From Desulfovibrionaceae bacterium (lineage in GTDB: Bacteria > Desulfobacterota > Desulfovibrionia > Desulfovibrionales > Desulfovibrionaceae): a stretch of DNA of 64,000 nt. Every line of letters begins with the position of its first letter. The first letter of the stretch is position 1. Positions 38,932 through 60,663 of this stretch are shown in pieces. Both the position numbers and the translations under genes were made by a program. A model generated the notes under the pieces. That model did not search any database, was not told the DNA's origin, and saw nothing but the letters and a program-made list of their open reading frames with translations. The stretch spans positions 1,189,909 to 1,253,908 of the forward strand of contig OY762289.1 of the NCBI GenBank assembly GCA_963665495.1, in the 5' to 3' direction.

Positions 38932-38969
38932 GGAGCCTGTGTTGATACACAGGCTCTGTCAATTTTTTT
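38932..38969 (+). terminator. Rho-independent terminator/attenuator after the pilin genes
   Basis: GGAGCCTGTG-ttgata-CACAGGCTC stem-loop followed by gtcaaTTTTTTT. Sits between flp and the downstream pseudopilin genes. Confidence 0.65.
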
Positions 38970-39084
38970 GTTGTAGTAGAAAAATTAACAATATTCTGTT
39001 TGTAATTACTATTATTTATATGTGAAATAAAAATAAATTTTTACGATGATTACAAAAAATTTTACCGCCTATTTTAGTTAGATA

Positions 39085-39477: not shown

Positions 39478-39478
39478 A

Positions 39479-40390: not shown

Positions 40391-40391
40391 C

Positions 40392-40805: not shown

Positions 40806-40807
40806 AT

Positions 40808-41671: not shown

Positions 41672-41797
41672 GGCCGAACGACAGATATTTTTCACACTGG
41701 ATCGGAAATTCAGGCTTCAAGCCGAAGCCATCGGTACAAGCGGCGGAGCGAGCCGGTTCGGCGGATTCGCTCCAGTAATTCATAAGGGAGACAGGTG

Positions 41798-43300: not shown

Positions 43301-43323
43301 CAGGTCGCGCCGGGGATTGCTTT

Positions 43324-45399: not shown

Positions 45400-45427
45400 G
45401 CTGAGGAAGGAAGCGCTTGTGGATAAC

Positions 45428-46663
45428 ATGATGGTATACCTGCTGACGGCCTGTTTTTTGCCGCCGTTCTGGGGCATCTGCTACTGGCTGGCGCAGCTAG
45501 TGCTGGGAGACCGCAAAAAGGACGGGCATGGCAGCTCGTTCGGGCGGTATGTCTCCTGGATCAGTAATACGCTGGACCAGATGTTCTACCAGGTGCCTGA
45601 AAAGAAAATCCGCACTTTTCTGCTGGCGTCCATGCTTGTGGCTGGACTTGCCGGGTTCCTGTTGCCGTCTTCTTTGTCCGGCATCAGCAAGAATTCTCTG
45701 CATACGGCCATGGAGCTGAACCGTAAGGGGCACTACAAGGAAGCGCGGAACGCTTTGCTTGGCTACGAATCGTCGAAATCGCCTCTGATTCTGAACGAAC
45801 TGGGTGTCGCCTTTCTGGGTATGGGAGATTACGACGAGGCCATGGACTATTTCCGGGCGGCGCTCTCCATGCAGCCTTACTACGGCGTGGCCCATGCCAA
45901 TCTGGCAACGGCCTACCTGCACAAGGAAAATCTCGAACGCTGGCGTTTCGAGCGGGCCCGTTCCATAGAAGTGGGCAAATATCCTCTTTCCACCTCCGAA
46001 ATATATAACCTGGAAACATCCATCGTCAGCCAGCTGTTACTGCGTCTGTTCGTGGCCGCGATATTCATGCTGGCCGTCTACAACCTGCCCCGGCTGATCA
46101 TCCGGGTTTTGCGTTCACGCAGGATCAAACGCTACGAAGAACAGATGCCCGACGCTTTGTTGATGGCGTCCAACGGGTTGAAGGCCGGATTCAGTCTGAT
46201 GCAGGCCCTGGAGGTGGTGGCCTCGGAAATGACGCCTCCTTTGAGCCAGGAGTTCCGTCTGGTGCTCAAGGAGCATCAGCTTGGCTCGGAATTGGATGAA
46301 GCTCTCGAACATCTGGCCCAGCGAATGCCTACTTTAGATACGCGTATTTTTGTCAATTCACTCGCCATATTGCGTGAAACCGGCGGTAATCTGACGGAAA
46401 TATTCGACACCATGGCCGAGACCATCAAAGAGCGTAAACGCGTTCTGCAGAAAATCAAAACCATGACAGCCGAAGGAGAAACGCAGGCGTATATTCTTTC
46501 GGCCCTGCCCCTGGTCCTGGGGTTGATCATGTACAAACTCAATCCGGAAAATATGGAGCTGATGTTCGGCACGCCCCTGGGATGGATGATCGTGCTGCTG
46601 GTCGTTTTGCTGGAAGCCGTGGGGATTTTCTGGATGTTGAAAATGGTCAAAGTAAAAGTATAG
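45428..46663 (+). CDS. TadB-like platform protein (T2SSF domain) with an N-terminal TM plus TPR-repeat extension
   Basis: TPR-like repeats (…NELGVAFLGMGDYDEAMDYFRAALSMQPYYGVAHANLATAYLH…) precede a T2SSF domain (…MPDALLMASNGLKAGFSLMQALEVVA… …ETQAYILSALPLVLGL…). An alternative GTG start at 45419 is possible. Confidence 0.75.
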   Translation: MMVYLLTACFLPPFWGICYWLAQLVLGDRKKDGHGSSFGRYVSWISNTLDQMFYQVPEKKIRTFLLASMLVAGLAGFLLPSSLSGISKNSLHTAMELNRKGHYKEARNALLGYESSKSPLILNELGVAFLGMGDYDEAMDYFRAALSMQPYYGVAHANLATAYLHKENLERWRFERARSIEVGKYPLSTSEIYNLETSIVSQLLLRLFVAAIFMLAVYNLPRLIIRVLRSRRIKRYEEQMPDALLMASNGLKAGFSLMQALEVVASEMTPPLSQEFRLVLKEHQLGSELDEALEHLAQRMPTLDTRIFVNSLAILRETGGNLTEIFDTMAETIKERKRVLQKIKTMTAEGETQAYILSALPLVLGLIMYKLNPENMELMFGTPLGWMIVLLVVLLEAVGIFWMLKMVKVKV

Positions 46664-46731
46664 CGGTCGAATTCGCGGACTGCTTTGAGGAAAACTGGAA
46701 AAACGTTTGCCGTGTTGAAAAGGAGATTATT

Positions 46732-47280
46732 ATGGGCTTGCGCGCGCGTCTTGTACTACTGCTTTTTCTTTTTGCCTTGCCGTTGACCACATCATGTTCG
46801 ATGCGCCCCAAAGTGGAAGGGGTGCTTCCCAAAGGCATCGTTCAGGTGGACAAGAACAATTACAACGCCATGGTCTTACGAAGCAAAGGCCCCTGCATGG
46901 TGTTGTTCTATGACGAAGGCATCGAATCCACCGCGTTGCACCGCCTTTACATCGCGTATGCCGACCGCTACGGCAAACACGCCAAATTCTGCCGCTACCA
47001 GTGGGACGGTACCGATAACCCCGGCGATTACCGCCTCGAGGTCCGGCCCACCATCATTTTGTACCGCGACGGCATTGAAGTGGACCGTCTGCGCGGCATT
47101 CCCCCGCGTACGCCCGATTATGTGGACTGGAACGAGGACGTGGAACTCTGGATCCTGCGTACCGCCATTCAGGTAAAAAGCGACAAATACACGGCCACCT
47201 TCAATTGTTTCTTTAACAACACCTATGACCTGGAGTTCACCAATCTGGGCATGGACGATAAACGGGATGTCGAGGATTAG
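46732..47280 (+). CDS. Lipoprotein with a thioredoxin-like fold lacking the CxxC active site
   Basis: Signal peptide + lipobox (LPLTTSC). …CMVLFYDEGIEST… …RPTIILYRDGIEVDRLRG… has thioredoxin-fold topology without redox cysteines. RBS AAGGAG. Confidence 0.55.
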   Translation: MGLRARLVLLLFLFALPLTTSCSMRPKVEGVLPKGIVQVDKNNYNAMVLRSKGPCMVLFYDEGIESTALHRLYIAYADRYGKHAKFCRYQWDGTDNPGDYRLEVRPTIILYRDGIEVDRLRGIPPRTPDYVDWNEDVELWILRTAIQVKSDKYTATFNCFFNNTYDLEFTNLGMDDKRDVED

Positions 47281-47487
47281 ATACTGAGAAGGTATGCTTC
47301 AGGCTGTGTAAGCCCCTGTGTTGTAAAAGAGGACTGAGAATCTCTAACGACTTTAAAGCGTTAGTGAAGACAACAGCTATACAGAGCAATTTGAGCGCGT
47401 CCAGGGCCGCTGCCCTGGCGAGGGGTGTGGGGACGAGGAGCCCCCGCGGTGTTTTCTAATTTTTCAGCTGATCGGGGGAGTCCTGCA

Positions 47488-49209
47488 ATGAACGACGCAC
47501 TTGCCGCCATGAATCAGAAGCTGTTGCGCGCGTTCGAGCTGCGCGGGCTTGTGCCTGCGGGCATGCCGCCGCCAAAGGATCAGCTGCTGTCTGACCTGCT
47601 GGTCAAGACCGGACGCGTCAGCCCGTCCGACGTCAACCAGGTGCTGGAAGAGGTCACGGGGTGTCAGTCCGTGGATCCGACCATGGTTTCCTTCACGCCC
47701 GAATATCTGACTCATGCGCAGGCGCTGATCCCCAAGGCCATCGCTGTAGAAGAAGCCGTATTCCCCATCCGGCACGAACAGAATTTCGTCCACCTGGTTA
47801 TGAGCCGCCCGGAAGATACGCGCTGCCTCAAACGTATGGAATTCCTCACCGGATCGCGGATCAAGCCCTACGCCTGCCACACGGGCCGGATTCTTGAAGC
47901 GCTGGAAACACACTACAGCCCGGATGAAAACTGGCCGGACCCTGAGGCACACAACGAGCAGGCTCTGCTGGACCGCGCGACCAAGGCCGTGAATCTGCTC
48001 AAGGCCAACCTCGCTCCATTGGACGATGTGATCATCAACGTCCATGTCATCAAATTGCTGCGCTATGTTCTCAACGAACTGGTGGACCGTGGATCCAGCG
48101 ATCTGCATTTCGAGCCTCTGGAAGACTGCTACCGTATCCGCTACCGCAAGGACGGCGTGATGGTCACGGCCTGGCGTTTTCCCAATCTGATCAAGGAGGC
48201 GCTGACCGCGCGGTTGAAATTGCTGTCCGGTCTGAAGCTGGACATCACCAGGGCGCCCCAGGACGGCAGCATTGCTTACCACATCATTGAAAACCGCGAG
48301 ATAGACGTACGCGTCAGCACCTTGCCGTCATTGTACGGTGAAAAAATAGTCTTGCGCGTTTTGGATAAAAGCGCCGACCGTCTGAAACTTTCCGACCTGG
48401 GGCTGGAGAAGTGCGACGAAGATCTGTTGTTCGCTTCCATTCGCCGACCCAACGGGTTGTTGCTGGTCACCGGTCCGACAGGCAGCGGAAAGTCCACCAC
48501 GCTGTACGCGGCGTTGACCGAAATGAACAGCGACGAGGTGAATATCGTCACCGCCGAAGATCCGGTGGAGTACAAACTCAACGGTTTGACGCAGGTAAAC
48601 TGTTCGGCCGAGGAGGGCACCAGCTTCAATGCCGTGATCCGTTCTTTCTTACGCCAGGATCCGGACATCATCATGGTGGGCGAAATACGCGACGCCGAGA
48701 CAGCCGATTTTGCGGTAAAGGCCGCCATGACCGGCCACCTCGTGCTTTCCACTTTGCATACCAATGATGCGCCCAGCGCCATCAACCGTCTGGTGAATAT
48801 GGGCCTGCCGCCGTTTCTGGTGGCCTCCGCGCAGATTACCGTAGTGGCGCAGCGCCTTGTCCGCAGGATCTGCGGTAACTGTAAAAGCGCGTATACGCCC
48901 TCGGAAGAAGATCTGCTGCGCGTGCCCGAACTGGCGTCGGAAGCCGCCGACGGGTCTTTGACATTTTTTCGGGGAGACGGTTGCGAACATTGCGCCGGCA
49001 CCGGATATTCCGGACGCGTGGGGGTGTATGAAATTATGCTGGTTACCGACCGGCTGGAAGAAATGATTTTGAATCAGGAATCCTCAGGCGCGCTCAAAAA
49101 CGCCGCGGTGGAGGGAGGAATGCGCCCGCTGCGGCAGGCCGCTTACGATAAACTGCGCCAGGGCGTAACCACCCTGGATGAGGTGTTGCGCGTCACTTTG
49201 GACGCCTGA
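47488..49209 (+). CDS. GspE/PilB-type secretion ATPase with a T2SS-E N-terminal (MshEN-like) domain
   Basis: N-terminal ~190 aa GspE_N-like. Walker A LVTGPTGSGKSTTL, Asp box, Walker B DPDIIMVGEIRD, His box TGHLVLSTLHTNDA. Tetracysteine CGNC…CEHC. RBS GGGGAG 5 nt before ATG 47488. Confidence 0.85.
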   Translation: MNDALAAMNQKLLRAFELRGLVPAGMPPPKDQLLSDLLVKTGRVSPSDVNQVLEEVTGCQSVDPTMVSFTPEYLTHAQALIPKAIAVEEAVFPIRHEQNFVHLVMSRPEDTRCLKRMEFLTGSRIKPYACHTGRILEALETHYSPDENWPDPEAHNEQALLDRATKAVNLLKANLAPLDDVIINVHVIKLLRYVLNELVDRGSSDLHFEPLEDCYRIRYRKDGVMVTAWRFPNLIKEALTARLKLLSGLKLDITRAPQDGSIAYHIIENREIDVRVSTLPSLYGEKIVLRVLDKSADRLKLSDLGLEKCDEDLLFASIRRPNGLLLVTGPTGSGKSTTLYAALTEMNSDEVNIVTAEDPVEYKLNGLTQVNCSAEEGTSFNAVIRSFLRQDPDIIMVGEIRDAETADFAVKAAMTGHLVLSTLHTNDAPSAINRLVNMGLPPFLVASAQITVVAQRLVRRICGNCKSAYTPSEEDLLRVPELASEAADGSLTFFRGDGCEHCAGTGYSGRVGVYEIMLVTDRLEEMILNQESSGALKNAAVEGGMRPLRQAAYDKLRQGVTTLDEVLRVTLDA

Positions 49210-49252
49210 GTAGGGATCTCGCAAAACTGTGTTGCTCTACAAGGAGCGGGGT

Positions 49253-50131
49253 ATGGACCTAGCATTGAAAGCAGGCGGATTGTTGTTGCTGTTTCTCAGC
49301 ATATTCGCGTTTTTGTACGCGCTGTTGCCTGGAGAAAAAGAACAGAAGGCCCGCAAGCAATTTGAAGAAGAGGCTGCGCCTGGCGAATCCACGGGCTTCA
49401 TCAATTTGTTTCGCCCGTTCTTCACTTTTTTTAAACCATTGGCCGTGCGGCTGGCCTGGCCAGGCTATCAACGGCGGATTCAGAAAATGCTGGTCAATGC
49501 GGGGCTGGACCGCGAGCTGAATGTCAGTGATTTTGTCGCCTTTCAATTCCTGTTGCTGGTGCTTTTCGTGCTGATGGGCCTGGTGTTGTGGTATAGCCTT
49601 GGGGCCGCGATTTTCGTGGGGATGCTCGGGCTTGGCTATCCGTATTTCTGGTTGTGGGACAAGAAACGCAATCGTCAGCGGGACATTGCTTTGTCCATGC
49701 CCGACGTGGTGGATATGCTTTCGCTCTCGGTGGAAGCCGGCCTGGATCTGCTGGCGGGCATCAAGCGGATTTGCGATGTGAATGCCACTGCCAGGGATCC
49801 GTTTATTCAGGAACTCGGCTACATGTACCACAACATCAAACTGGGCATGAGCACGGAAGAGGCTTTGAACTCCATGGCCGAGCGGGTGGATGTTCAGGAT
49901 GTCTATTCGTTCACGTCCATTTTGATTCAGGCCCAGAAAATGGGCTCCAGCATCTCGCAGGTACTGAAATCCCAGGCCGTACGAATGCGGCAGCAGCGCT
50001 TCATGAAAGCGGAGCGTGTCGGCGCCGTGGCTTCGCAAAAGCTGCTGATTCCAATGATGCTCTGTATTTTTCCCGTGTTGTTTATTGTGATTTTTGCCCC
50101 GTATTTACTCAAATATATCTATGGCCAATAG
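49253..50131 (+). CDS. tadC: TadC-like platform protein (T2SSF domain)
   Basis: …LSMPDVVDMLSLSVEAGLDLLAGIKRI… …SFTSILIQAQKMGSSISQVLKSQA… T2SSF signatures. RBS AAGGAG 6 nt before ATG 49253. Confidence 0.8.
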   Translation: MDLALKAGGLLLLFLSIFAFLYALLPGEKEQKARKQFEEEAAPGESTGFINLFRPFFTFFKPLAVRLAWPGYQRRIQKMLVNAGLDRELNVSDFVAFQFLLLVLFVLMGLVLWYSLGAAIFVGMLGLGYPYFWLWDKKRNRQRDIALSMPDVVDMLSLSVEAGLDLLAGIKRICDVNATARDPFIQELGYMYHNIKLGMSTEEALNSMAERVDVQDVYSFTSILIQAQKMGSSISQVLKSQAVRMRQQRFMKAERVGAVASQKLLIPMMLCIFPVLFIVIFAPYLLKYIYGQ

Positions 50132-50140
50132 GTGCGGCGC

Positions 50141-51784
50141 ATGAAATGCAGCCTCGAGATACGCAAAGGTGCGGAAACCGTGCTTTCCCGTGAGCTTGTT
50201 CCCGGAGAGTACGCCGTTGGTAGAAAAGACGGAAATGACATTGTGCTTGCCGACAAAAGTATTTCCGGAAAACACGCGGTAATTACTGTCAGCAAGAAAA
50301 AAGTCGTTATTACCGATCCCGGAAGCCGTAACGGCGTTTTGCTTCAGGGGAAACGGATCAAAAAACAGTCCTTTGCCAAGGATTTTTCCGTGCAGCTCGG
50401 ACCTTTTTTGCTGCACTTTGCTCTGGGAGCTGCGGATGCCGGACAACAAACCAGTAAAACCAAAGAGGCCAAAAAGGCCGTACAGGCCTCGAAAAGCCTG
50501 TTCGCCTCGCTTAATCCACGGGTTCTGGTCTGCTGCGTTGTGTTTTGTTTCGCGCTGTTCATGGCAGTGGTTTATTACGCGCCCCTCAAGGCTGCTTTGG
50601 AATCCGGGCGCGAACGCGAGGCTTTGGCGCGCGGCTTTCTCCTGGCCCGCTATCTGGGCGCCGTGAATCAGCTTCCGTTGGAAGAAAAACGCATGGATGT
50701 TCTGCGTACGGATCCGAGCAACACGGAAGAGGGCGTACGCTATGCCTACGTCGTTGACCCCTACGGAAAGGTCCTGGCCCCTGCCCAGGAAATGGGCAAG
50801 TTTCTGAAGCTGCGCAAGATCGACAAGGCTCTGGCGGATCCGAAGTTGCGCGCCTGGGACGGCGATGACGGCGAGCAGATCATTTTTTACCCCATCAAGG
50901 AATTCGACAAGCTGCTGGGTGCGGCCATCATCGGCTATGACCTGGAACGCGCCGTTGCCGTGCAGGGGAGCGGATACGGAGGCACAGCGGCGATGCTGTT
51001 TCTTGTTTCTCTGTTCGTCGCCGGACTGTGCTGTTTCGTGCTGCTACGCGGACTTCTTTCCCCCTTGCGGGCGCTGGCGGAAGATGCGGGCGTCAGCCTG
51101 AAGCAGCGGCAGGACCATGTGGGGTTCAAGGCAGCGTACGCCGAATTGCAGGCTCTGGTGGAAGCCATAAACAGAATGCTTTTGCTGATTGCCAAAACAG
51201 CGGACGCTGTGCCGCCAGTCAGACACGAGGAGACAGCTCCCCCCGCTACTCCTTCGGAAGAACAACCCCCTCCGGATGAAGCTGAATCTCCGCTTGATAT
51301 GGATGCCACAATTATCTCCGACAAAGCACCTGAAAGCTCTGCGCCGCGCGAGTCTGCGGCACCAGAGTTTGTACAAAGTCTGTCGGAGGCTGCGGATATT
51401 GCAGATGCCGGCCCGGCCGGCGATTCCATTGATTTGAGCAGGGAACCGGCCCCTGAAACAGGTGGGGCCGCGAACGTGGGTACGGACATCGGTTCCGTGG
51501 AACTGCCCGCCTGCCACATTGATCTGCAGCTGTATACCATCGTGTCGTTCAATACGGCATTTTGCAGCTTTTTTCCTGTCGGCGAGAAAAAGGAAGGCAT
51601 GCATATGCTCGAGGCGTTTCCTGATCCCGAATTGATCAGCGCTATTTCCACGTTGATTGATGATGCGCAGCTCGAGGCGGAGTCCGTGGTCAGGGGCGAA
51701 CGCGTAATGTGCGTACGCAAGGAAGTCTTGCCGGGGGGCGCATGGACCGCCTTGTTTACTTTTAAGGAGACTGCAGATGGCTGA
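50141..51784 (+). CDS. FHA domain membrane protein: FHA - TM - Cache-like periplasmic domain - TM - HAMP-like region - acidic/Pro-rich linker - C-terminal domain
   Basis: N-terminal FHA (…GRKDGNDIVLADKSISGKHAVI… …GSRNGVLLQG…). TM about aa 130-150. Periplasmic segment with Cache-like …YAYVVDPYGKVLA… …GAAIIGYD… TM about aa 285-310. Begins 1-10 nt after the tadC stop. Confidence 0.75.
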   Translation: MKCSLEIRKGAETVLSRELVPGEYAVGRKDGNDIVLADKSISGKHAVITVSKKKVVITDPGSRNGVLLQGKRIKKQSFAKDFSVQLGPFLLHFALGAADAGQQTSKTKEAKKAVQASKSLFASLNPRVLVCCVVFCFALFMAVVYYAPLKAALESGREREALARGFLLARYLGAVNQLPLEEKRMDVLRTDPSNTEEGVRYAYVVDPYGKVLAPAQEMGKFLKLRKIDKALADPKLRAWDGDDGEQIIFYPIKEFDKLLGAAIIGYDLERAVAVQGSGYGGTAAMLFLVSLFVAGLCCFVLLRGLLSPLRALAEDAGVSLKQRQDHVGFKAAYAELQALVEAINRMLLLIAKTADAVPPVRHEETAPPATPSEEQPPPDEAESPLDMDATIISDKAPESSAPRESAAPEFVQSLSEAADIADAGPAGDSIDLSREPAPETGGAANVGTDIGSVELPACHIDLQLYTIVSFNTAFCSFFPVGEKKEGMHMLEAFPDPELISAISTLIDDAQLEAESVVRGERVMCVRKEVLPGGAWTALFTFKETADG

Positions 51785-52796
51785 TGCCTTTTCCGAAACC
51801 GTCGTCGAGGAAACACCGGGAACGATGACTCTGAAGGTGATTCAAGGCAAAGGCGAAGGGAAAAAATACGCGTTGGCAGAGGGTCGGGGCATGGTCATCG
51901 GCCGGATGCAGGATAGCGATATTCACATTGACCCCGCTGACAAGCTGGCGTCTCGCCACCACGCCCGGATAACGCGTCAGGGAGATGCGGCCCTGCTGGA
52001 AGACCTGGGGAGTGGCAACGGCACTTTTGTGGGGGATGAAAAAATTTCGCAACAGTCATTGCAGCCGGGGGCAGTATTCCGAATCGGCGGCACGACCTTT
52101 GTGCTCGAACTCCAGAGTCCGCAGGAAGCGACCAATGTCACCATGTATCTGGACTCCGAAAAACCAGTCAAAAAAGGCGGCAGCAAAGTCAGGGTGATTT
52201 TGCTGGGGGCGCTGCTGGTCTGCATGCTGGGCGTGCTTTTCATCCTGTTTTCCGGAGACAAGGATCCGGAAAAGGCCGAACAGCAGGTGGAACCGCCGTT
52301 GAAGCAGACGGAGCAGGCCGTACCGGCTGCGGTTCCGACTCCGGCAGCCCAGCCCGCCGGACCAGAACCCGCCGGACCAGAGCCTGCGGCTGCAAAGCAA
52401 GTTGAAACAGAGGCTCCCCAAGAAGCGTCGCCGGACAAGGCTGGCTCTGACGTTTCTGAAATCAGCGGCACGCAAAAAAAAGAGTCGCAGGATCATTTTC
52501 GCCAGGGGAGATTTTTTTATAACACGGGCAATCTGGAAAAGGCCGTGGACGAATGGGATCAGGCCTACAAATTGGATCCGGACAATCAGGCGGCCAAAAA
52601 ATGGCTGCTGCGAGCGGAACAGGAACTGGACGAGCAGATAGACACCCATTACCGGCTCGGATTGAAAGCGAAAAAGTATATGCGCTATACCGACGCGTGC
52701 AATGAATTCAAACTGGTCGTGAAGTGGAGTCGTGACAAAGAGGACGAGCGTTATCTGGACGCGTTGAAGCAACTAGAAGAGTTGAAGGATAAATGA
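51777..52796 (+). CDS. FHA domain membrane protein with a Pro/Ala-rich linker and TPR-like C-terminus
   Basis: FHA (…GRMQDSDIHIDPADKLASRHHARI… …GSGNGTFV…). TM (…VILLGALLVCMLGVLFILF…). RBS AAGGAGA 6 nt before ATG. The start overlaps the upstream stop (ATGGCTGA). Confidence 0.8.
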   Translation: MADAFSETVVEETPGTMTLKVIQGKGEGKKYALAEGRGMVIGRMQDSDIHIDPADKLASRHHARITRQGDAALLEDLGSGNGTFVGDEKISQQSLQPGAVFRIGGTTFVLELQSPQEATNVTMYLDSEKPVKKGGSKVRVILLGALLVCMLGVLFILFSGDKDPEKAEQQVEPPLKQTEQAVPAAVPTPAAQPAGPEPAGPEPAAAKQVETEAPQEASPDKAGSDVSEISGTQKKESQDHFRQGRFFYNTGNLEKAVDEWDQAYKLDPDNQAAKKWLLRAEQELDEQIDTHYRLGLKAKKYMRYTDACNEFKLVVKWSRDKEDERYLDALKQLEELKDK

Positions 52797-52798
52797 TC

Positions 52799-54265
52799 AT
52801 GCCTGAAGAAGAACGAACGCAGCTGCAGCAGACCGGCGAATGGGCCGATTCCACAATGGATTACACCCAGCACGGCTTTCAGGTCGAACAGCAGAATACA
52901 CTGGTTGTCATTGAAGGACCGTCCAGTGGATTGAGCAGATCATTCGGCGACGGCATTCTGGTCGGCCGGCAACCCAATTGCGATTTGCAACTTGATGACA
53001 GCAGCGTATCCCGCGAGCATCTGCGTATTGAGCGTAAGGGTAAAAAGTTGATTGCCAACAACCTGAACAGTAAGAATTTTACGTTGGTAAACGGCAAAAA
53101 AGTTACTACCGCCACACTGCGCGACGGTGATGTCCTGAGCCTGGGCAATTCCAAGCTGCGTCTGAGTCTGAAGGGAGCAGGCGGTGGGAGTGCCGGTTCT
53201 CCTCAAAAGAGCAGCCGCGTACGTATTCTGTTGTTGCTTCTGTTGCTGCTGCTCATGCTGATAGTGCTGTTCGTCGCCCTGGGGTCCAAGGACGATGGAT
53301 CCCGGAAAACTGAGACGTCCGTGCTGGAACAGGAACGCGAAAAAGAGGCCGCAGTCGAGGATGCCAGCGTCAAGCGGGCCATAGCCGTTCATTTGAATAA
53401 CGGAAAGCGCTTCATGGAAGAAGGAAACTACCCGCAGGCGCTGGAGCGATTTGAAGCCGTGCTGCAGCTTGTCGCAAAGCATCCGCAAGCAGAAAAACTG
53501 GCCGCAGAGTGCAGGGAGCGCATTCAGAAAAAACAGCAGGCCGAGGCGAAGAGAGAGCAGGAAGTACTGGAAAGAAAACAAAAAGTGGCGCCAATGCTCA
53601 CGGAGGCCAACGTACTGTACAGTACGAAGGATTACGCAGGTGCGATTTCCGTCTTGAAACAGGCTCTGGAAATATCACCCCACGACCAGGATCTGCAGGA
53701 GTTGCAGGTCAAGGTGCAGGAGGCCTATCAGCTCGAGCAGGATACCCTGAACAAGCAGCAAAAGCGGACTGAGCGAGTTTTGAAGCGTATCCAGAGCAGC
53801 AAGGCCAAGGCCGAGGAATATGAGGCCAAAGGGCAGCATTACCGCGCTCTCAAGGAGTACGAGTTTATTCTGAGCATGAACGCCAAAGGGCCGGAGATTG
53901 AGGCCATAAAAGGCAAGGCTAGCGAACAGCGAAAAATCCTTGAAGAACAGACCCGAAGTGATTTGGAGGCCGGACAACAACTGGCCGAACAGGAAAAATA
54001 TGAAGAAGCCATGCTGGAATGGCGCAAGGTGCTGGAGGTTTATCCGGATCATCCGGGCGCGTTGAGCGCGATGCAGCAACTTCTGCCCACGCTGGAAAAA
54101 AAGGCCAAGGAATTGTATCAGCAGGGGCTGGTTTACGAAGATCTGGGCCAGACCGCCAAGGCGGTGGAAAGTTATGAGCAGGCCATGGAAGTTTTAGAAA
54201 TCAATCCCAAACACGAGTATTATCTCAAATCAAAGAAAAAGTTGAAAGAGCACGGGGCATTGTAG
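52799..54265 (+). CDS. FHA domain membrane protein with a coiled-coil/TPR-rich C-terminal region
   Basis: FHA (…GRQPNCDLQLDDSSVSREHLRI… …NSKNFTLVNG…). Leu-rich TM (…RILLLLLLLLMLIVLFVAL…). Long helical repeat region. The start overlaps the upstream stop. Confidence 0.8.
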   Translation: MPEEERTQLQQTGEWADSTMDYTQHGFQVEQQNTLVVIEGPSSGLSRSFGDGILVGRQPNCDLQLDDSSVSREHLRIERKGKKLIANNLNSKNFTLVNGKKVTTATLRDGDVLSLGNSKLRLSLKGAGGGSAGSPQKSSRVRILLLLLLLLLMLIVLFVALGSKDDGSRKTETSVLEQEREKEAAVEDASVKRAIAVHLNNGKRFMEEGNYPQALERFEAVLQLVAKHPQAEKLAAECRERIQKKQQAEAKREQEVLERKQKVAPMLTEANVLYSTKDYAGAISVLKQALEISPHDQDLQELQVKVQEAYQLEQDTLNKQQKRTERVLKRIQSSKAKAEEYEAKGQHYRALKEYEFILSMNAKGPEIEAIKGKASEQRKILEEQTRSDLEAGQQLAEQEKYEEAMLEWRKVLEVYPDHPGALSAMQQLLPTLEKKAKELYQQGLVYEDLGQTAKAVESYEQAMEVLEINPKHEYYLKSKKKLKEHGAL

Positions 54266-54378
54266 TCCTGAAGGCTTTTGAAGCCGGAAAGCAAATTTTT
54301 CGGAAGATGCAATACTGGAGCCTCTGCGCCGCGAGCGTACGGGCTCTTTGCTTTTTCCGGGGAGGCGGCGGAAAGAGC

Positions 54379-56061
54379 TTAGCGCCGCCAGTTGTCCATC
54401 GTACGCCTGCTGTTCAGAAAGGTTATGACCGTGGAACAGCCGTCGCAGAGATTGTTCACTTTGAGCAGAGGAAAACTGTATTCTTTGCTCTGTGCATTCC
54501 AGGACAGGGCGATTTGTTCTTTTGCTGTGACAGGCGTGATGTTTCGTGCGCTTTTCCGCAAGATTTTTCGTAAAATATAGCGGTTGATTATTTCGAATTT
54601 TTTATTTCCATAATTAACTGTAGTATGCAGTAGGCTGTATTTTCTTTCCAGTTCCGTATTGCGCGTGTTGCTGGCCATGAAGTAGATGGAAACTGTTTCT
54701 TTAGGACCGAGAACATAGGGTGTCGTACGGGATGGCAGCACGTATGTCCGGCCTTTAGTAACCGGATTATTCAAATTTTCAGCTTTTGTTAAAAAACCGG
54801 ATGATGGGAAAAGCTGGTTCACATAAAGTTCATTGACAATGGTAAAAATATACACATAACAGTCCTGGTCCGGAGTAAAACATATTTTATAGGTGTCCCT
54901 TGGATTCAATTCCTCATTGTTGCGTAATTTTCTGATGCTTTCGGAGCCATCCGGCTGAAAAAAGTAGTTGAGCTGAAATGAAAGGTTGGCAGGTGTAGCA
55001 TTTTGGGGCTGTCCGGTGGCTGCCGGTTTATCCTGCTGGGAGACGGGGGGCTGGCCGGGGGAGGGACCATAACGCAGCAGAGCCAGGCCGCCGAAGACTG
55101 CCAGTAGAACAAGCGCTGCCGTGAGCGCGGATTTACGAATCATCGAACTGCGACGGGCGTTTTGGGATCTGACGGAGCTGCCCAGCTGCAATTCGCGCAG
55201 GGCGGTGATGATCTCCTGGCAGTTCTGAAAACGGTGCTCAGGAGTTTTATTCATGCAGTTTTCAATGATCTCGTCGAGTTGCACCGGCAGAAGGGGATTG
55301 ATTTTTGAGGGGGGCGCCGGGGCCGAATGCGTAATTTTATAGGCGACGGATGAAAACGTTTCTCCTGAAAAGGCTTTTTCTCCAGTCAGGAAGAGGTAAA
55401 ACACCGCCCCGAGGGAGAAAATATCTGATTGGAGCGTTCCCCGGATACCACCGACCTGTTCGGGAGACATATAGCTCGGCGTACCGATGATCTGTTCCGT
55501 ACGCGTCAATTCGGAATCCTGCGTATGTACGGTGCCGAAATCCATGATCTTGATCACGCCCTGGTGCGTCACCATGATGTTGGTCGGCTTGATGTCTCTG
55601 TGAACGAGTCCGGATTCGTGAATCACATCCAGTCCTTCGCACATCTGAATCATGTATTGCAGTTTTGTCTGCAGCGGAAGTTCCACCGGGGATTTGCACA
55701 GTTCCATGAGCGTCTGGCCTTCCACATACTCCATGGCAATGTACAAGGTGTTTTCATGGCGCCCGATGGCGTATACTTTGATGATGTTGTTGTGGTTTAT
55801 TTTCGCAAGTGATTTGGCTTCTCTGAGAAAACGCTGCACCAGTTGCCTGCGGTTTTCATGGGACATGGATGGCGGCGGCGCATGCAGGGTTTTGATTGCT
55901 GCCAGACGGTCCAGCATGGGGTCCTTGCCCAGATACACAGTCCCCATGCCGCCTTTTCCCAACATGCGGATGATGGTGAATTTACCAATTCTGGGCGGCA
56001 GATCTTGCGTATCGCAGTCGTCTACAAGGACTAGGGTCAGATCATCCTGGCTATCCGGCAC
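54379..56061 (-). CDS. Transmembrane Ser/Thr protein kinase (Hanks-type) with a ~230-aa extracytoplasmic C-terminal domain
   Basis: GxGxxG (LGKGGMGTV), VAIK (LAAIKTL), catalytic loop HRDIKPTNIMV, DFG, SPE. TM at about aa 305-325. RBS GAAGGAGG 6 nt before a GTG start. Confidence 0.85.
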   Translation of the reverse strand: MPDSQDDLTLVLVDDCDTQDLPPRIGKFTIIRMLGKGGMGTVYLGKDPMLDRLAAIKTLHAPPPSMSHENRRQLVQRFLREAKSLAKINHNNIIKVYAIGRHENTLYIAMEYVEGQTLMELCKSPVELPLQTKLQYMIQMCEGLDVIHESGLVHRDIKPTNIMVTHQGVIKIMDFGTVHTQDSELTRTEQIIGTPSYMSPEQVGGIRGTLQSDIFSLGAVFYLFLTGEKAFSGETFSSVAYKITHSAPAPPSKINPLLPVQLDEIIENCMNKTPEHRFQNCQEIITALRELQLGSSVRSQNARRSSMIRKSALTAALVLLAVFGGLALLRYGPSPGQPPVSQQDKPAATGQPQNATPANLSFQLNYFFQPDGSESIRKLRNNEELNPRDTYKICFTPDQDCYVYIFTIVNELYVNQLFPSSGFLTKAENLNNPVTKGRTYVLPSRTTPYVLGPKETVSIYFMASNTRNTELERKYSLLHTTVNYGNKKFEIINRYILRKILRKSARNITPVTAKEQIALSWNAQSKEYSFPLLKVNNLCDGCSTVITFLNSRRTMDNWRR

Positions 56062-56285
56062 AATTGCCTCCTTCGGCTGATTGAAAATAACAGCTTAAAG
56101 GAACATGGAAAAAAGACGGGGCATACCGCTTTTCCCCTGTGACCATCCCGTATCTTCATAAGAGATAATAGGGCCGTACGCAAACAATTTGCATCGTGCT
56201 GGATCATGAACCATTTGGTTGAGCAGCGGACAACTGTCTGCGGCATCTGTCAGGACAGGTTGTTGCGGGGGGCCGGCCTTTTCCG

Positions 56286-57443
56286 TCAGTCTGTGGGCGG
56301 CGCGATGGTTTCGTAAATTTCGTCGGAGGCCATCATGATGTCCACAGGCGGATCGTAGCCGATGATTTCCGCCACTTTGAGGTTCATGGCGATTTTTTGG
56401 GGAGCCTGCCAGCATTGGTTGATGTCGCGCGGTTTTGCTCCGTTGAGGATTTTGGCCAGGACTTCCGCATTGAATTTCCCCTCGTGTTCGTAATTGGCCT
56501 GGGCAATGCTCATCAGTACGCCGTGTCTGACCTGTTTTGAGCCCAGCATGGAGAATGTCGGCAAGTGATGCGCGTAGAGCGGGGCAAGCAGATTGGGGAG
56601 GTTTTTGACCGTTACGCCCCGGTGTTCCGTAATGTATACGGCATCGACCTTAGGGGCTATTTCCTCATAGCATTTAGCGACGAGAGTTTCAGCTTCCTGC
56701 AACGAAACGTTGTTGAAGGGCGCATTGCAACTGATAACCTTGAAGCCGCGCTCTTTGGCGATGGCGTTGATGGCGTCCAGTGCGGCAAAGGTGGCTCCTT
56801 CAGCGGAGTTCTCGTATACGATCCCCAAACGTTTGAACCCCACAATATTGTGGAAAAGACGGAGCTGTCTTTCATACCGTTCGGGTTCAACCAATGCGTG
56901 GATGTTGTCCCGGCCGGAATCTTCCATGCTTTTTACAATACCCGAACCGATGGGATCGCTGCAGGAGGCCACCATTGTGGGTATCGTATTGGCGTCAACG
57001 GCCAGGTCTTGCCCTGCCCAGGTGCCCAAAGCGAGAATGAGATCAAGGTCTTTTTGTGAATTGGCGCGTTTGAGAAAAGTTGCCTGCGTATTGTGCCTCA
57101 GGTCGGCATCAAAATCGCCAGGCGAGTAGAACGCATCAGCAACAAACTCCAGGTAGTCGCTTTGCGCATTGGCGGAGAGCCATTGCCAGAATTTCTGATC
57201 GTGCATTTTCCCCGGGGGAAAATTTACTTTGAGCCAGCCCAGGTCCTGCAAGCCGAGAAGCGTGTTTCGCAAAATAATCTGGTAATTGGGATATTGTCCG
57301 CCTTCGTAAAAACCAATACGCCATTTTTTTCCATGGTTTGTCACCGGTGAAGTCGGAAAAGCGTCTCCGGGTTTAGCGAATCCGGGGACGGCGAATCCCA
57401 TGGCCAGAACGCAGGTAAGAACGAAAAAGGCGAGCTTCCGCAT
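56286..57443 (-). CDS. Periplasmic substrate-binding protein of the uncharacterised 'ABC transporter substrate-binding' family commonly paired with signalling proteins
   Basis: Signal peptide. 385 aa periplasmic binding-protein fold. Placed between the phosphatase and kinase genes on the same strand. RBS GGGGAG. Confidence 0.55.
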   Translation of the reverse strand: MRKLAFFVLTCVLAMGFAVPGFAKPGDAFPTSPVTNHGKKWRIGFYEGGQYPNYQIILRNTLLGLQDLGWLKVNFPPGKMHDQKFWQWLSANAQSDYLEFVADAFYSPGDFDADLRHNTQATFLKRANSQKDLDLILALGTWAGQDLAVDANTIPTMVASCSDPIGSGIVKSMEDSGRDNIHALVEPERYERQLRLFHNIVGFKRLGIVYENSAEGATFAALDAINAIAKERGFKVISCNAPFNNVSLQEAETLVAKCYEEIAPKVDAVYITEHRGVTVKNLPNLLAPLYAHHLPTFSMLGSKQVRHGVLMSIAQANYEHEGKFNAEVLAKILNGAKPRDINQCWQAPQKIAMNLKVAEIIGYDPPVDIMMASDEIYETIAPPTD

Positions 57444-57593
57444 TTACTACTCCCCTGAGCTTAAGAAAGATAGAATCCTCTAGATATCACAGCTTCTGAT
57501 AGCTGATCAAGAAAGTTTGCAAATCGGGTCAAAAGCTTCCGTTTCGAAAAATGGGTCCGGATAGCTGTATCGATGTTGTAACTACAAGTTGTT

Positions 57594-59633
57594 TCAATCG
57601 TCAGTTGGACCGTTGTATTTGATGCACAGCATGGTGATGTCATCCCATTGCATAAACCCAGCAGCATGTTCGTTGATAGCATCCATGACGCCGCTGATGA
57701 CATCCTTGGGGGTTTTGGTGTTCAGCTTGTCGGTTACCTGCAGTAACCGTTCGTCCGAGAAAAGTTCACGTTCGCAGTTTGCGGCTTCCGTAACGCCGTC
57801 CGTGTACAAAAAGAGGGTTTCGCCCGGCTTGAGCTCCGTATACAGGGTAACATAGGGCATATCCTCCATGGCTCCGGCGATGGGGCCGCTGATGCCTTCG
57901 ACAAATGCGGACTTCCTGGTGGGGCTGAAAATAACGGGAAGATTATGGCCGGCATTGCAATAGCGTATGGCTCCCGTCTGCATGTCCAGCATACCGATGA
58001 TCATGGTGACGAACATGGAGTTCGGATTGTCCGTGCTGAGCGCGTTGTTCACTTTAGACATGATCTCGGCCGGATCGTCATAGGTTTCGGCCATGAGCTT
58101 AACCAGTGTTTTGGTGATGGCCATGAACAGGGCAGCGGGAACGCCTTTGTCCGAGACATCGCCTACGGAAAAAAAGAGCTGTTTTTCATTGATGAAAAAG
58201 AAATCGTACAAATCGCCGCCGACCTGTTTGGCAGGTTCGAGAAAAGCGTACAGCTGTACTTCTTTCAATTCGTCCGAAGGAGGCGGAGGAAATACCTTGG
58301 GCAACAAGCCCATCTGAATACTGCGGGCGATGTGCAGTTCATGCTCGATACGCTGTTTGGAAGCGGTGACGTCCATGAGTTCGCGAATTTTGGTCCGCAG
58401 GGAGGTTTCCATGGACATGAAGGTTTCCGCCAGATGACCCACCTCGTCCTTGTACAATTCCGGCAGGTCTTGGATGGGCGGCGCTTCTTTTCGTTCTTCT
58501 GTGAGATCTGCCTCGGAAAGGCTTTTCGCGTATGCGGAAAGGCGAACGAGCGGCCGGGAAATTTTGTTGGCGAACAACAGTCCGATTATCAGGCTCAGGG
58601 CCAGGGCTGCGGATGTGATCATGCTTTGGCGCGTCAGAAGCTCGCGGGCGGGTTTGTGAACTTCCTCTGTGGAAACATTGGTGCAGATATACCATTTCAG
58701 CGGCTTGAAATAGGTGACATAGGATTCCATCTCTTCGGAACCAGGGACGTTACTTTGATGATAAACAGGTCGGTTTTCGCCGGCATGCGCCGCGTCTATC
58801 AGATCATCCAACAGGTTCTTGTTGTCGAGAACGTTGACGGAAGTTGCGAGCTGCTCTTTGTCTTTTTCAGGAGCAAGGAGAATTTTTTTATTTGCATTGA
58901 AAATAAAGACATAGCCCGTGTCGGCAAAATGAACGTTGGCGATGGTCTCTTTTAGTGTGGCGAAATGCTCCTCGAGCTTGCGTTGCATTTCGATTTCCAC
59001 GTCTCCCACGTAATTGGAAGCGCCGACGGTCCAGCCCCATTTAGGGAAATATCGGAAATGGGCGAACTTTTTAATCGGATCCTCACTTCCGTTCACATCC
59101 CAGATAAATGTGCTGAAGGCGTGTCCTTTTTTTCTGGCCTCTTCTCTGGCAGCGTCAAACAGCGGGCGCCCTTTGATATCCCGTAAATGGGACATATTGC
59201 GTCCGATGAGTTCTTTTTCCGGGTAATAGAGAATGGCGTTGTCTTCGCCGTATATGATGCCGTGTTGCTGATCTTCACCATCCATACGGGCAATCCATTT
59301 CAACGCCATGTTTTTAGCCACATCTTGATCCAGAACGCCTTGATCCGTGAGATTGGCATATTCCTCTATGCCAGCAAGAAAGACATCCGAAAGGGCCTTC
59401 GTATCTCCCTTACGGCGTTTGATGGTTGCCATTTTATCCCAAATCAGATTTTCATAGCTGGCGTCAATGTTCAGGGTTACCAGTTGCAGCACATTCTGGG
59501 CGGAACGTTCTTCTGCAGCGAGCATGGCATTTTCAACGTTGCGTTTACTGAAAATCATGAAAGTGAACGCGACCAGGGAAAGAATGCAGATGACGAGAAA
59601 TAATATTTTTTGTTTCAGGGAGCGCAGTTTCAC
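57594..59633 (-). CDS. Sensor PP2C-family Ser/Thr phosphatase (N-terminal TM - extracytoplasmic Cache-like sensor - TM - HAMP - SpoIIE/PP2C domain)
   Basis: C-terminal PP2C/SpoIIE motifs (…GGDLYDFF… …FSVGDVSDKGVPAALFMAI… …LFLYTDGVTEA…). HAMP-like …LVRLSAYAKSLSEADLTE… RBS AAGGAG 6 nt before GTG 59633. Confidence 0.8.
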   Translation of the reverse strand: MKLRSLKQKILFLVICILSLVAFTFMIFSKRNVENAMLAAEERSAQNVLQLVTLNIDASYENLIWDKMATIKRRKGDTKALSDVFLAGIEEYANLTDQGVLDQDVAKNMALKWIARMDGEDQQHGIIYGEDNAILYYPEKELIGRNMSHLRDIKGRPLFDAAREEARKKGHAFSTFIWDVNGSEDPIKKFAHFRYFPKWGWTVGASNYVGDVEIEMQRKLEEHFATLKETIANVHFADTGYVFIFNANKKILLAPEKDKEQLATSVNVLDNKNLLDDLIDAAHAGENRPVYHQSNVPGSEEMESYVTYFKPLKWYICTNVSTEEVHKPARELLTRQSMITSAALALSLIIGLLFANKISRPLVRLSAYAKSLSEADLTEERKEAPPIQDLPELYKDEVGHLAETFMSMETSLRTKIRELMDVTASKQRIEHELHIARSIQMGLLPKVFPPPPSDELKEVQLYAFLEPAKQVGGDLYDFFFINEKQLFFSVGDVSDKGVPAALFMAITKTLVKLMAETYDDPAEIMSKVNNALSTDNPNSMFVTMIIGMLDMQTGAIRYCNAGHNLPVIFSPTRKSAFVEGISGPIAGAMEDMPYVTLYTELKPGETLFLYTDGVTEAANCERELFSDERLLQVTDKLNTKTPKDVISGVMDAINEHAAGFMQWDDITMLCIKYNGPTDD

Positions 59634-59976
59634 AGGGACTCCTTGTTTTAGGGATGCGCCGGCTGGTTGGATTTTTATTGAATCGAAGCGAAAGGTACCA
59701 GATCGGCTGTTAAAAAACCAGAGCGGGAACATGTCGTTACTGCTGTCCGGCCGGCGAATTCAGTTTAGCAAAATGGCAGGAGAGGAGGATACATTAATGG
59801 GAATTTATTACCAGTGATCTTGTGAAACCCAGGCGATCAGTATAATTCTAACCTGGGTCCTTCTTCTTGTGTTTTGGAGCGTGAGAACGGAAAACCGTGC
59901 GGGATGCAAGGACCCATTTTGACGATTCTGTGACTTTTTGGATTGGCCGGACGAATCGCGCTTGGATGGTGCTTTT

Positions 59977-60663
59977 TTAAAAATATCCCATGCTGCGAAG
60001 CTGTTCGAGGGCCTGTTCTTTGCGCTGTGAGCGTCCCTCGCGTTCTGCTGCTTGCTTATGAGTGGTCAATGCCGGGTTGTTGGTGCAGGGTTCGCAGCCC
60101 AGCGAGCGGTAGCCCCGCGTATAGAGTTCGCAATAGGGCAGGTTGCGACTGGTGATGTAAGCCCAGATATCCATTTCCGTAAATTCAAGCACCGGATGCA
60201 CAAAGCGGTGGACCGGATCGCTACGCTCCTCCAGCCAGGGCCTTTGAGCCCGGTCCGGGTGCTCGTCACGTCTCAGGCCGCTGAGCAACAGTGTGATGCC
60301 AAGTTTTTTCAAGCCCTTCTTGAGTGGCAGGATTTTGCGTACGTTGCAGCAGGCCACAGGATCCTCGGCAACGGGTACGGATTCCGCTTCAGGCCCCGGA
60401 CGCAGAATCTGAAGATCAAGATCCCACGTACGTGCCAGATCGTCTCTGAAACGGCAGATTTCGGCGAACTTCAATCCCGTGTCCAGATTGACTGCAAGAA
60501 CGCGTCCCTCGTGTCCGTGCTGCCGCAAATAGTTGCGCCAGATGTCCAGGGCTACCGTGGAATCCTTACCGCCTGTCCAGGCTACGGCCGCAGGTTTCGC
60601 GGCGGCTGCCTGAATCGTATCCAGACGTTCGTAAGCTTGTTTAATTTTTTCATCCAGAGTCAT
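59977..60663 (-). CDS. Phosphoadenosine phosphosulfate (PAPS) reductase family protein
   Basis: …AVAWTGGKDSTVALDIW… PP-loop-like SGGKDS motif and C-terminal Cys pair (…GCEPCT…) of the PAPS_reduct family. Confidence 0.6.
   Translation of the reverse strand: MTLDEKIKQAYERLDTIQAAAAKPAAVAWTGGKDSTVALDIWRNYLRQHGHEGRVLAVNLDTGLKFAEICRFRDDLARTWDLDLQILRPGPEAESVPVAEDPVACCNVRKILPLKKGLKKLGITLLLSGLRRDEHPDRAQRPWLEERSDPVHRFVHPVLEFTEMDIWAYITSRNLPYCELYTRGYRSLGCEPCTNNPALTTHKQAAEREGRSQRKEQALEQLRSMGYF

Follow-up and report, generated by a model that had tools for sequence, protein, structure and literature searches.

A Hanks-type kinase and a sensor phosphatase convergent to an FHA-rich Tad-like operon in a Desulfovibrionaceae genome: candidate enzymes for a threonine-phosphorylation switch

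Do the enzymes encoded beside a Tad-like operon switch that machine by threonine phosphorylation? The question is raised by a 64,000-nt stretch of DNA from a Desulfovibrionaceae bacterium (contig OY762289.1, GCA_963665495.1, positions 1,189,909-1,253,908), called the window throughout, and in particular by its minus-strand segment 54379-59633, where a membrane phosphatase, a periplasmic binding protein (PBP) and a transmembrane Ser/Thr kinase are transcribed toward three genes for forkhead-associated (FHA) domain proteins at the end of the tad operon. The initial annotation of this segment had described one operon and a complete threonine-phosphorylation circuit. Gene neighbourhoods and conserved residues give good comparative support to an FHA trio that operates by reversible Ser/Thr phosphorylation, and suggest phosphothreonine (pThr) control of the Tad machine. 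The adjacent kinase is the prime candidate for the writer in this genome. Our preferred reading, to which we assign a probability of about 0.45, is that two or three distinct transcription units lie side by side at the locus (the tad/FHA operon, the convergent kinase, and the phosphatase with the PBP) and that these would form a pThr switch of the Tad machine resembling that of type VI secretion systems (T6SS), with the window phosphatase and PBP possibly serving as eraser. The genes on which the argument turns are the following.

54379-56061, minus strand: transmembrane Hanks-type Ser/Thr kinase, 560 aa (Pfam, PDB match, residue alignment, hydropathy, AlphaFold2 (AF2))
56286-57443, minus strand: orphan periplasmic solute-binding protein, 385 aa, with signal peptide (Pfam PF04392, PDB, hydropathy)
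57594-59633, minus strand: membrane sensor phosphatase, 679 aa, with a transmembrane segment (TM), periplasmic dCache_2, TM, HAMP and SpoIIE-type PPM (PP2C) domain (Pfam, PDB, NCBIfam, hydropathy)
50132-51784, plus strand: FHA protein 1 (FHA550), 550 aa (Pfam, alignment, hydropathy, AF2)
51777-52796, plus strand: FHA protein 2 (FHA339), 339 aa, with FHA, TM 140-158 and periplasmic TPR (Pfam, hydropathy)
52793-54265, plus strand: FHA protein 3 (FHA490), 490 aa, with cytoplasmic FHA, TM 145-163 and periplasmic coiled-coil/TPR (Pfam, hydropathy)

The three minus-strand features are real genes with homologues and ribosome-binding sites, not chance open reading frames (ORFs). They converge on the FHA genes exactly as first mapped, from the kinase stop codon at 54379 to the phosphatase start at 59633, and the domains first proposed for them (Pkinase, PF04392, Cache/HAMP/SpoIIE) were all correct by Pfam. 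The comparisons below use L-numbered contigs retrieved by homology to the kinase, the phosphatase or FHA550, mostly from uncultured lineages known as metagenome-assembled genomes (MAGs). A genome-collection scan with an FHA protein as query assigned the locus to Desulfovibrionaceae. Its closest relatives were two MAGs, and farther tad/FHA loci belonged to Desulfovibrio sp. DV and to MAGs, one of them of Solidesulfovibrio.

The kinase gene starts with GTG, preceded by the Shine-Dalgarno sequence GAAGGAGG. Its product matches Pkinase (PF00069) at 9e-51 and, among PDB entries, PknB best (4e-49), with a PknB-like RD kinase domain at residues 27-295. In 10 of 10 orthologues K57, E81, H154-R155-D156, N161, D174-F175-G176 and S199-P200-E201 are invariant, as are the Thr/Ser residues of the activation loop. 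All the hallmarks of a Hanks-type kinase are present: Pkinase fold, catalytic Lys, helix C Glu, HRD...N loop, DFG and SPE. Hydropathy places a single hydrophobic segment at 311-329, followed by 231 aa outside, which is the receptor-kinase topology of PknB- and PpkA-like proteins (one TM between a cytoplasmic kinase and an extracytoplasmic domain) and bears out the Hanks-type kinase with a single TM and a 230-aa outside domain that had been described from the sequence. The kinase family is small: its ten full-length clusters fall into four sublineages, with 43-47% identity between sublineages. A hidden Markov model (HMM) of the kinase, run over the window and L001-L020, found only one further kinase, a weak partial match in L005; Hanks kinases are rare in this sequence space. 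Within the 64 kb of the window, the kinase HMM and a SpoIIE search returned only one kinase and one SpoIIE domain.

The kinase ectodomain contains a DUF4384-type module of ~195 aa with conserved Cys401, Cys539 and Cys542, and Pfam scored DUF4384 at 26.7 bits, slightly below the 27-bit cut-off. Its AF2 model (pLDDT 84) combines an Ig-like sandwich with a helical hairpin. Structural matches of the model were generic only, and the domain is neither PASTA nor vWA. A profile of the ectodomain matched 1257 representative clusters, and the module was C-terminal throughout among the matches listed. An N-terminal domain was identifiable in four of the ten matches that were scanned: caspase, CsgG/FlgO/LpoB-like (two) and TIR; a PASTA domain was also present in one of those scanned. 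The ectodomain is classed as an extended DUF4384 envelope module.

The candidate pThr readers at the locus are the FHA trio. Hydropathy places the FHA domains of all three proteins in the cytoplasm, each followed by a TM helix. FHA550 has two TMs, its layout being FHA, TM 131-149, a periplasmic loop of ~137 aa, TM 287-305, a helical linker, a disordered region and a C-terminal alpha/beta domain. The AF2 model of FHA550 (pLDDT 56 overall) is confident for the FHA and C-terminal domains and uninterpretable for the periplasmic loop and linker. Alignment of homologous loci showed G30, R31, S45, H48, S65, N67 and G68 of FHA550 to be invariant, and the pThr pocket was kept in the 12 compared loci in FHA339 (GR/SRxH/NG) and FHA490 (GR/SREH/N), down to ~30% identity. 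Judged by these pocket residues, all three FHA domains appear pThr-competent. A phosphorylation-independent alternative, in which the trio would be structural ring or adaptor parts like SctD/YscD of the type III secretion system (T3SS) and there would be no phospho-circuit, draws on the fact that all three proteins also match PF16697 (Yop-YscD_cpl), with weak NCBIfam matches to SctD and GltG, and on their being membrane-anchored products of core operon genes in the related loci that span the FHA genes. We regard it as highly improbable, because the GR, SxxH and N pocket residues are conserved to ~30% identity, which argues against a purely structural, YscD-like role, and because it leaves unexplained both the PP2C inside the operon of one lineage and the Hanks kinase adjacent in two others. 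As a separate observation, the FHA550 orthologue of L022 (7679-10867) is expanded to 1062 aa: several hundred inserted residues, rich in Pro, Ala, Thr and Glu, lie after the FHA domain and ahead of the first TM.

The neighbourhood of the trio was examined in the retrieved loci. FHA550 homologues in the database were few, and the gene order from TadG to the third FHA gene was the same in the retrieved loci, each over the stretch that it covers. Another lineage, to which Desulfovibrio sp. DV (an isolate-labelled genome) and the Solidesulfovibrio MAG belong, has in 6 of 6 loci, next after the last FHA gene and on the same strand, a gene for a classical PP2C_2 phosphatase (PF13672) of ~260 aa with the motifs RxxNED, DGMGG, DG and DN:

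L014, 14234-15001: operon-end PP2C_2
L015, 13805-14581: operon-end PP2C_2
L016, 13805-14581: operon-end PP2C_2
L018, 13808-14605: operon-end PP2C_2
L019, 8036-8779: operon-end PP2C_2
L020, 13769-14569: operon-end PP2C_2

Its start overlaps the stop of the FHA gene by 4 bp in L015 and L020, and tblastn found no PP2C_2 elsewhere, the window included. The classical PP2C_2, coupled in frame at the end of the operon in these six distant loci, is an independent tie between the FHA trio and Ser/Thr phosphorylation. At the same junction, the window, L002, L003 and L022 have a kinase orthologue that converges on the last FHA gene; in L022 the kinase is 43% identical to that of the window and the tad proteins 61-65%. 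The four kinase sublineages are arranged as follows.

Sublineage A (window, L002, L003): kinase convergent to tad/FHA, with PP2C and PBP within 10 kb
Sublineage B (L005, L021): GCS2, major facilitator superfamily (MFS) protein, STAS, 357-aa protein, kinase, cyclic-nucleotide (cNMP)-binding protein, STAS; no tad, no PP2C
Sublineage C (L004): PP2C, methyltransferase, PBP, GCS2, MFS, kinase; no tad
Sublineage D (L022): kinase convergent to tad/FHA across a 70-bp gap; the contig ends 3.2 kb upstream, so the PP2C/PBP region is not visible

Altogether, in three of five sublineages the junction that follows the third FHA gene is held by a Ser/Thr-signalling enzyme of one of two kinds. Its presence there is unlikely to be due to chance because PP2C_2 holds the same junction in another lineage, and together with the conserved pThr pockets it gives good comparative support to a phosphorylation-dependent FHA trio. 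The neighbourhood conservation proposed as a check in the initial annotation was therefore found in part: synteny of tad and the three FHA genes held in all loci that span them, and kinase adjacency held in the window lineage and L022 and failed elsewhere.

The second enzyme of the locus was characterized in the same way. The phosphatase gene starts with GTG at 59633 after an AAGGAG Shine-Dalgarno sequence, a start shared by its database orthologues (679 aa). Pfam identified dCache_2 (8e-43), HAMP (2e-5) and SpoIIE (PF07228, 6e-49), the last spanning profile positions 2-191 of 192, and hydropathy placed TMs at 10-28 and 337-355 on either side of the Cache domain. Both enzymes thus carry extracytoplasmic domains, as initially claimed. 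The metal-binding Asp motifs GGDLYD, GDVSDKG, TDGV and DDIT are present in the translation, and the protein, which was also aligned to 3eq2, has the features of the SpoIIE/RsbU subfamily of PPM phosphatases. A role as an analogue of T6SS-type PppA was considered and rejected, the protein matching SpoIIE only.

The PBP that accompanies it matches PF04392 (ABC_sub_bind) at 3e-19, has an N-terminal signal peptide by hydropathy, and is related to the PDB entries 6hni, 3lft and 3lkv; the TrpX equivalog model of NCBIfam scored 73.9 bits, its cut-off being 390. Among PF04392 proteins of solved structure, the ligands are L-Trp, L-Tyr or L-Phe (PMC10443332). A PF04392 gene lies one to four genes from the PP2C homologue in five of five loci (L002, L003, L004, L026 and L027), to 36% identity, and no ABC permease or ATPase gene was found among the neighbours in these loci or the window. 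The idea that the PBP is part of an ABC importer was rejected on that absence. Since the PF04392 gene is constant beside the phosphatase homologue and importer genes are never there, the PBP is most likely a co-sensor of the phosphatase Cache domain. Of five distinct arrangements examined, three place the phosphatase/PBP family beside a secretion machine of the envelope. In L027 the phosphatase homologue (36% identity) comes after T6SS genes (VgrG, PAAR-like, VipA/B). In the Desulfobacterales MAG L026 (2179-6289 and 8920-14242), a module of phosphatase, STAS, RsbW-like and PBP genes is convergent with a type II secretion system (T2SS) cluster (GspE with MshEN, GspD, GspC).

Several observations weigh against the proposed switch, and those on gene neighbourhoods are taken first. 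No kinase or PP2C gene lies downstream of the tad/FHA block in L006-L009 and L011 (two lineages); the last FHA gene is followed by Vut_1, MgtE and NadCAB genes in L006-L008 and by cupin and S8 peptidase genes in L011. Seen from the kinase, tad/FHA genes are absent within 10 kb in L005 and L021 (sublineage B) and in L004 (sublineage C). The most constant kinase neighbour is instead a divergent gene for a long MFS protein (~800 aa, with a 400-aa N-terminal extension), found in six loci, in four of which the gene for GCS2, a carboxylate-amine ligase, lies beyond it:

L003, 7480-9900: long MFS
L004, 7045-9525: long MFS
L005, 5690-8197: long MFS
L021, 5432-7882: long MFS
L022, 463-2910: long MFS
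L023, 48-1781: long MFS

A metagenome scan with the ectodomain alignment, which supplied the MFS-kinase pair of L023, yielded only three short loci, uninformative on adjacency to tad or PP2C. Because the window lineage and L022 share this divergent MFS gene, their kinase-tad adjacency may be one retained ancestral arrangement and not two independent events. It could then be argued that an autonomous envelope- or metabolite-sensing module (PP2C, PBP, MFS, GCS2, kinase) unrelated to Tad has left the kinase, SpoIIE phosphatase and PBP as its remnant, that their position beside tad is retained ancestral synteny devoid of functional meaning, and that the FHA trio depends on kinases and phosphatases from other loci. 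The constancy of MFS and GCS2 around the kinase supports this, and so do L004, which retains all five genes of the module without tad, and L027, where the MFS halves are separate genes between the PP2C homologue and the PBP, beside alanine racemase and D-Ala-D-Ala ligase; most tad/FHA lineages also lack this kinase nearby. Yet the convergent kinase/FHA junction persists at 43% kinase identity in L022, although co-transcription cannot hold convergent genes together, and the PP2C at the same junction in another lineage makes coincidence unlikely. The window and L002 have, moreover, lost the MFS and GCS2 genes, and the window retains an intact kinase beside tad. We consider an autonomous module unlikely, if still a serious competitor.

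A further set of objections concerns the class of the phosphatase. Its nearest PDB structures are RssB (P. aeruginosa), Rv1364c, SiaA, SpoIIE and RsbX, and its best NCBIfam model, SiaA, is matched at 85.7 bits, far below the cut-off of 700. The Pfam models PP2C and PP2C_2 gave no match, SpoIIE alone being found at E<=0.01. By sequence it is classed with the partner-switching phosphatases (SpoIIE/RsbU/SiaA) and not with the PstP/PppA class, whose members are the phosphatases that normally oppose Hanks kinases. The homologue in L026 (42% identity) has STAS and RsbW-like HATPase_c_2 genes between PP2C and PBP. These points favour a reading in which the kinase alone is linked to FHA and Tad, and the phosphatase and PBP are an RsbU/SiaA-type input acting on an unlinked STAS-type protein and not an antagonist of the kinase. 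The same reading fits the classical PP2C_2 employed by the lineage with a dedicated operon phosphatase, the conserved region that the kinase has upstream of it, and the opposite-strand gene that can stand between the kinase and the PP2C-PBP pair (see below). The expected partners, on the other hand, are missing: no STAS protein was found in the window or its close relatives (phmmer, E<=10, with the STAS genes of L005 as queries, over the window and the loci then retrieved, L021 and L026 being outside the search), matches being confined to L005 and a distant partner neither proved nor excluded. No STAS or HATPase_c_2 gene occurs among the Pfam-typed neighbours at the window locus, nor was a STAS/RsbW-like gene found in L002-L004, so that a partner-switching module is not constituted there. 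PP2C/PBP and kinase also remain linked, within 10 kb and at 43-61% identity, in the tad-less L004, which argues that they belong together. We find a kinase-only link quite unlikely.

The kinase of sublineage B bears on the same point. It is flanked by two STAS genes, the cNMP-binding protein and the 357-aa protein (L005 8301-12627; L021 8216-12791), the last having no Pfam match and, by eye, motifs like those of class III cyclases (GDGF..., GDxxxxAxR). The flanking STAS genes hint at cross-talk between the Hanks kinase and partner-switching proteins, and a STAS protein could be a substrate that the two enzymes share and not one that separates them.

Whether the three minus-strand genes form one operon was judged from their spacing and their relatives. 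The two further features involved are given here.

56062-56192, minus strand: conserved region upstream of the kinase gene that probably represents a promoter and 5' untranslated region of its own (alignment with L002 and L003)
54317-54356, no strand assigned: GC-rich hairpin and T-run, likely terminator of the tad/FHA operon (sequence reading; the consensus scan did not list the hairpin)

The intergenic gaps among the three genes are 150 and 224 bp. In L002 a methyltransferase gene stands between PBP and kinase, and in L003 an acetyltransferase gene and the opposite-strand MFS gene (806 aa). The region upstream of the kinase retains 67-69% identity over 126-153 bp with L002 and L003, with a different upstream gene in each; conservation of ~130 bp whatever gene precedes it fits a promoter of the kinase's own. 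A consensus scan of 53900-60100 found no sigma-70 consensus in this region; overall it gave fewer promoter-like sites than in shuffled sequences and no excess of terminators, so it is silent on operon structure. The convergent FHA and kinase genes are 113 bp apart, and the hairpin in this gap folds at -45 kcal/mol (z = -2.0). The three genes are probably not, as a whole, one obligatory or conserved operon, and the single operon of the initial annotation was not upheld given the gaps, the inserted genes and the conserved region upstream of the kinase.

The switch that we prefer can be set out as a series of steps, in which the enzyme-substrate links are all inferred; domains, topology, residues and synteny patterns are observed. 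An envelope cue would act on the DUF4384 ectodomain of the kinase, which would autophosphorylate the conserved threonines of its activation loop and then phosphorylate Thr residues, either of a Tad component or in the linkers of the FHA proteins themselves. Docking of the FHA domains on these pThr sites would gate the assembly or activity of the platform and the two ATPases. A PPM phosphatase would reset the switch. In the sister lineage this would be the small cytosolic PP2C at the end of the operon. In the window lineage, which has no operon PP2C, it would be the ligand-regulated SpoIIE-type phosphatase with the PBP, and this is the weakest step. Opposition of the Hanks kinase by the window phosphatase is plausible because both stay linked in L004, and the enzyme class urges caution. 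Of the complete threonine-phosphorylation circuit claimed at the outset, then, the kinase and the pThr-competent FHA readers beside Tad stand, and the eraser is weakened by a phosphatase of the partner-switching class. A fuller transmembrane pThr circuit, with the DUF4384 kinase as writer, FHA-TPR proteins as readers bridging the ATPases to the periplasm, and an eraser that varies with lineage (PP2C_2 or the dCache/PBP SpoIIE phosphatase), is put forward tentatively and with some doubt.

The machine that would be switched is a Tad-like (type IVc) system encoded on the plus strand at 38428-50131 (Pfam, NCBIfam, ORF translations):

38428-38634 and 38653-38910, plus strand: two Flp-like pilins (Flp_Fap 1e-9)
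39085-40805, plus strand: TadE/TadG-like minor pilins (Pfam Tad/TadE)
40802-41671, plus strand: RcpC (Pfam)
41795-43300, plus strand: secretin (Pfam Secretin and T2SS-T3SS_pil_N)
43324-45399, plus strand: TadZ-TadA fusion ATPase without a receiver domain (Pfam CbiA and T2SSE)
45347-46663, plus strand: TPR-TadB-like T2SSF protein (Pfam)
46582-47280, plus strand: thioredoxin-like lipoprotein (faint thioredoxin match, E 0.007)
47425-49209, plus strand: PilB/GspE-like ATPase with MshEN (Pfam, NCBIfam)
49229-50131, plus strand: TadC-like T2SSF protein (Pfam)

The components that define a Tad/Flp system are present (Flp pilin, Tad/TadE, RcpC, secretin, TadZ-TadA and two T2SSF proteins), and the TadZ-TadA protein (TadZA) starts straight at the ParA/MinD P-loop. 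No prepilin peptidase (Peptidase_A24; TadV/CpaA) was found among the cluster ORFs scanned, not every small window ORF being included in that scan; Bdellovibrio likewise has no TadV and uses PilD (bioRxiv 10.64898/2026.07.08.737194). The two secretion ATPases, TadZ-TadA and PilB/GspE-like, occur in every related locus that covers those genes, and the thioredoxin-like lipoprotein gene is kept between the TadB-like and PilB-like ATPase genes in every covering related locus at 35-91% identity. By eye, the MshEN c-di-GMP motif of the PilB/GspE-like ATPase looks degenerate (LLSDLLVKTGRV..., without Arg and Gln). The pilin genes lie in a low-GC stretch at 36000-40400 (0.36-0.43 vs ~0.53), which also contains, at 36531-37898, the gene for a 455-aa polytopic membrane protein without a Pfam match. 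A gene for a hybrid histidine kinase, which combines a receiver domain with several PAS domains, lies at 27466-30222, about 8 kb upstream of the tad cluster. A second assembly of the window locus, L001 (ENA ERZ21862665 ctg5987l), is ~97-100% identical at the protein level; in it the genes for PpiD, the phosphatase and the PBP are broken into pieces, as are two FHA genes, both ATPase genes and the TadC-like gene. These splits are most likely frameshift errors of that assembly and not biology.

Several described systems resemble parts of this arrangement. The closest in logic is the threonine-phosphorylation pathway of T6SS (PpkA/PppA/Fha1 or TssL; P. aeruginosa H1-T6SS and A. tumefaciens), in which docking of FHA on pThr gates assembly post-translationally (PMC3953482, PMC5995506, PMC6082577, PMC7817224). 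There too the genes of an envelope-spanning nanomachine are accompanied by those for a PPM phosphatase, one or more FHA readers and a transmembrane Hanks kinase whose sensor domain is periplasmic. The machine here, however, is Tad/type IVc, and there are three membrane FHA proteins with periplasmic tails in place of one soluble Fha. The kinase ectodomain is DUF4384-type and not vWA, the window phosphatase is a membrane dCache-HAMP-SpoIIE protein whereas PppA is cytosolic (PppA-like PP2C_2 occurring only in the sister lineage), and kinase and phosphatase lie outside the operon of the machine. The window ORFs that were scanned included no T6SS genes; the likeness is functional only and the locus does not belong to the T6SS pathway.

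Kil of Myxococcus xanthus is likewise a Tad-like system of a former deltaproteobacterium rich in FHA-domain proteins, and its authors proposed an upstream phosphorylation cascade like that of T6SS (PMC8460266; review PMC12428579). In Kil the single ATPase, KilF, itself bears FHA, and no kinase or phosphatase is named. The window cluster differs in that TadA is fused to ParA/MinD (TadZ) and not to FHA, that a second, PilB/GspE-like ATPase is present, that FHA resides on three membrane proteins, and that a candidate kinase and phosphatase are adjacent; by description, it is set apart from the Kil type. In Bdellovibrio bacteriovorus a TadZ-TadA hybrid without a receiver (ARD) domain has neighbouring TPR and FHA regulatory genes (bioRxiv 10.64898/2026.07.08.737194), a likeness to the window protein that is again by description; its loci are dispersed, and no adjacent Ser/Thr kinase or PP2C is reported. 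Class III CpaF (FHA-CpaF) of betaproteobacterial Tad systems has a built-in pThr reader (PMC12019362), with the FHA fused to the ATPase and no kinase linked, whereas the window carries FHA on three bitopic or polytopic membrane proteins.

Outside bacteria, the Sulfolobus archaellum is also a type IV filament machine under FHA-dependent Ser/Thr phosphorylation control, through ArnA (FHA) and ArnB with the ArnC/D kinases (PMC6509490). That control is archaeal, acts on archaellum gene expression through soluble FHA/vWA proteins, and has an unrelated gene organisation. With the partner-switching phosphatases (RsbU, SpoIIE, P. aeruginosa SiaA, Chlamydia RsbU) the window phosphatase shares a SpoIIE-type PPM behind a membrane sensor and HAMP, and differs in that no STAS/RsbW partner accompanies it and the only nearby kinase is Hanks-type. 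A literature search for a Tad system with a linked Hanks kinase or PP2C, and for Flp/FHA in Desulfovibrio, found nothing specific. The initial statement that no described Tad system has such a circuit agrees with this, with the qualification that FHA-rich Tad systems and the idea of a T6SS-like cascade are already published. What synteny suggests to be new here is known regulatory logic with wiring that varies among lineages.

FHA-rich Tad-like systems enable Myxococcus to kill prey on contact and Bdellovibrio to invade its prey, and what signals upstream to the FHA domains of these systems has been asked by the authors of that work (PMC8460266, PMC12428579). A compact related operon with a kinase at its end, or with a PP2C inside it in the sister lineage, offers a concrete candidate pair of writer and eraser. 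The claim is based on gene neighbourhood in mostly uncultured MAG lineages, and its present value is that of a hypothesis generator. If true, it would provide the first kinase and phosphatase identified for the FHA-rich Tad-like class that includes Myxococcus Kil and Bdellovibrio Tad, and would mean that a phosphatase of partner-switching type had been recruited against a Hanks kinase. It would also extend the threonine-phosphorylation logic of T6SS to the bacterial type IV filament superfamily. In sulfate reducers it would indicate that adhesion or secretion is regulated, in connection with envelope or amino-acid cues.

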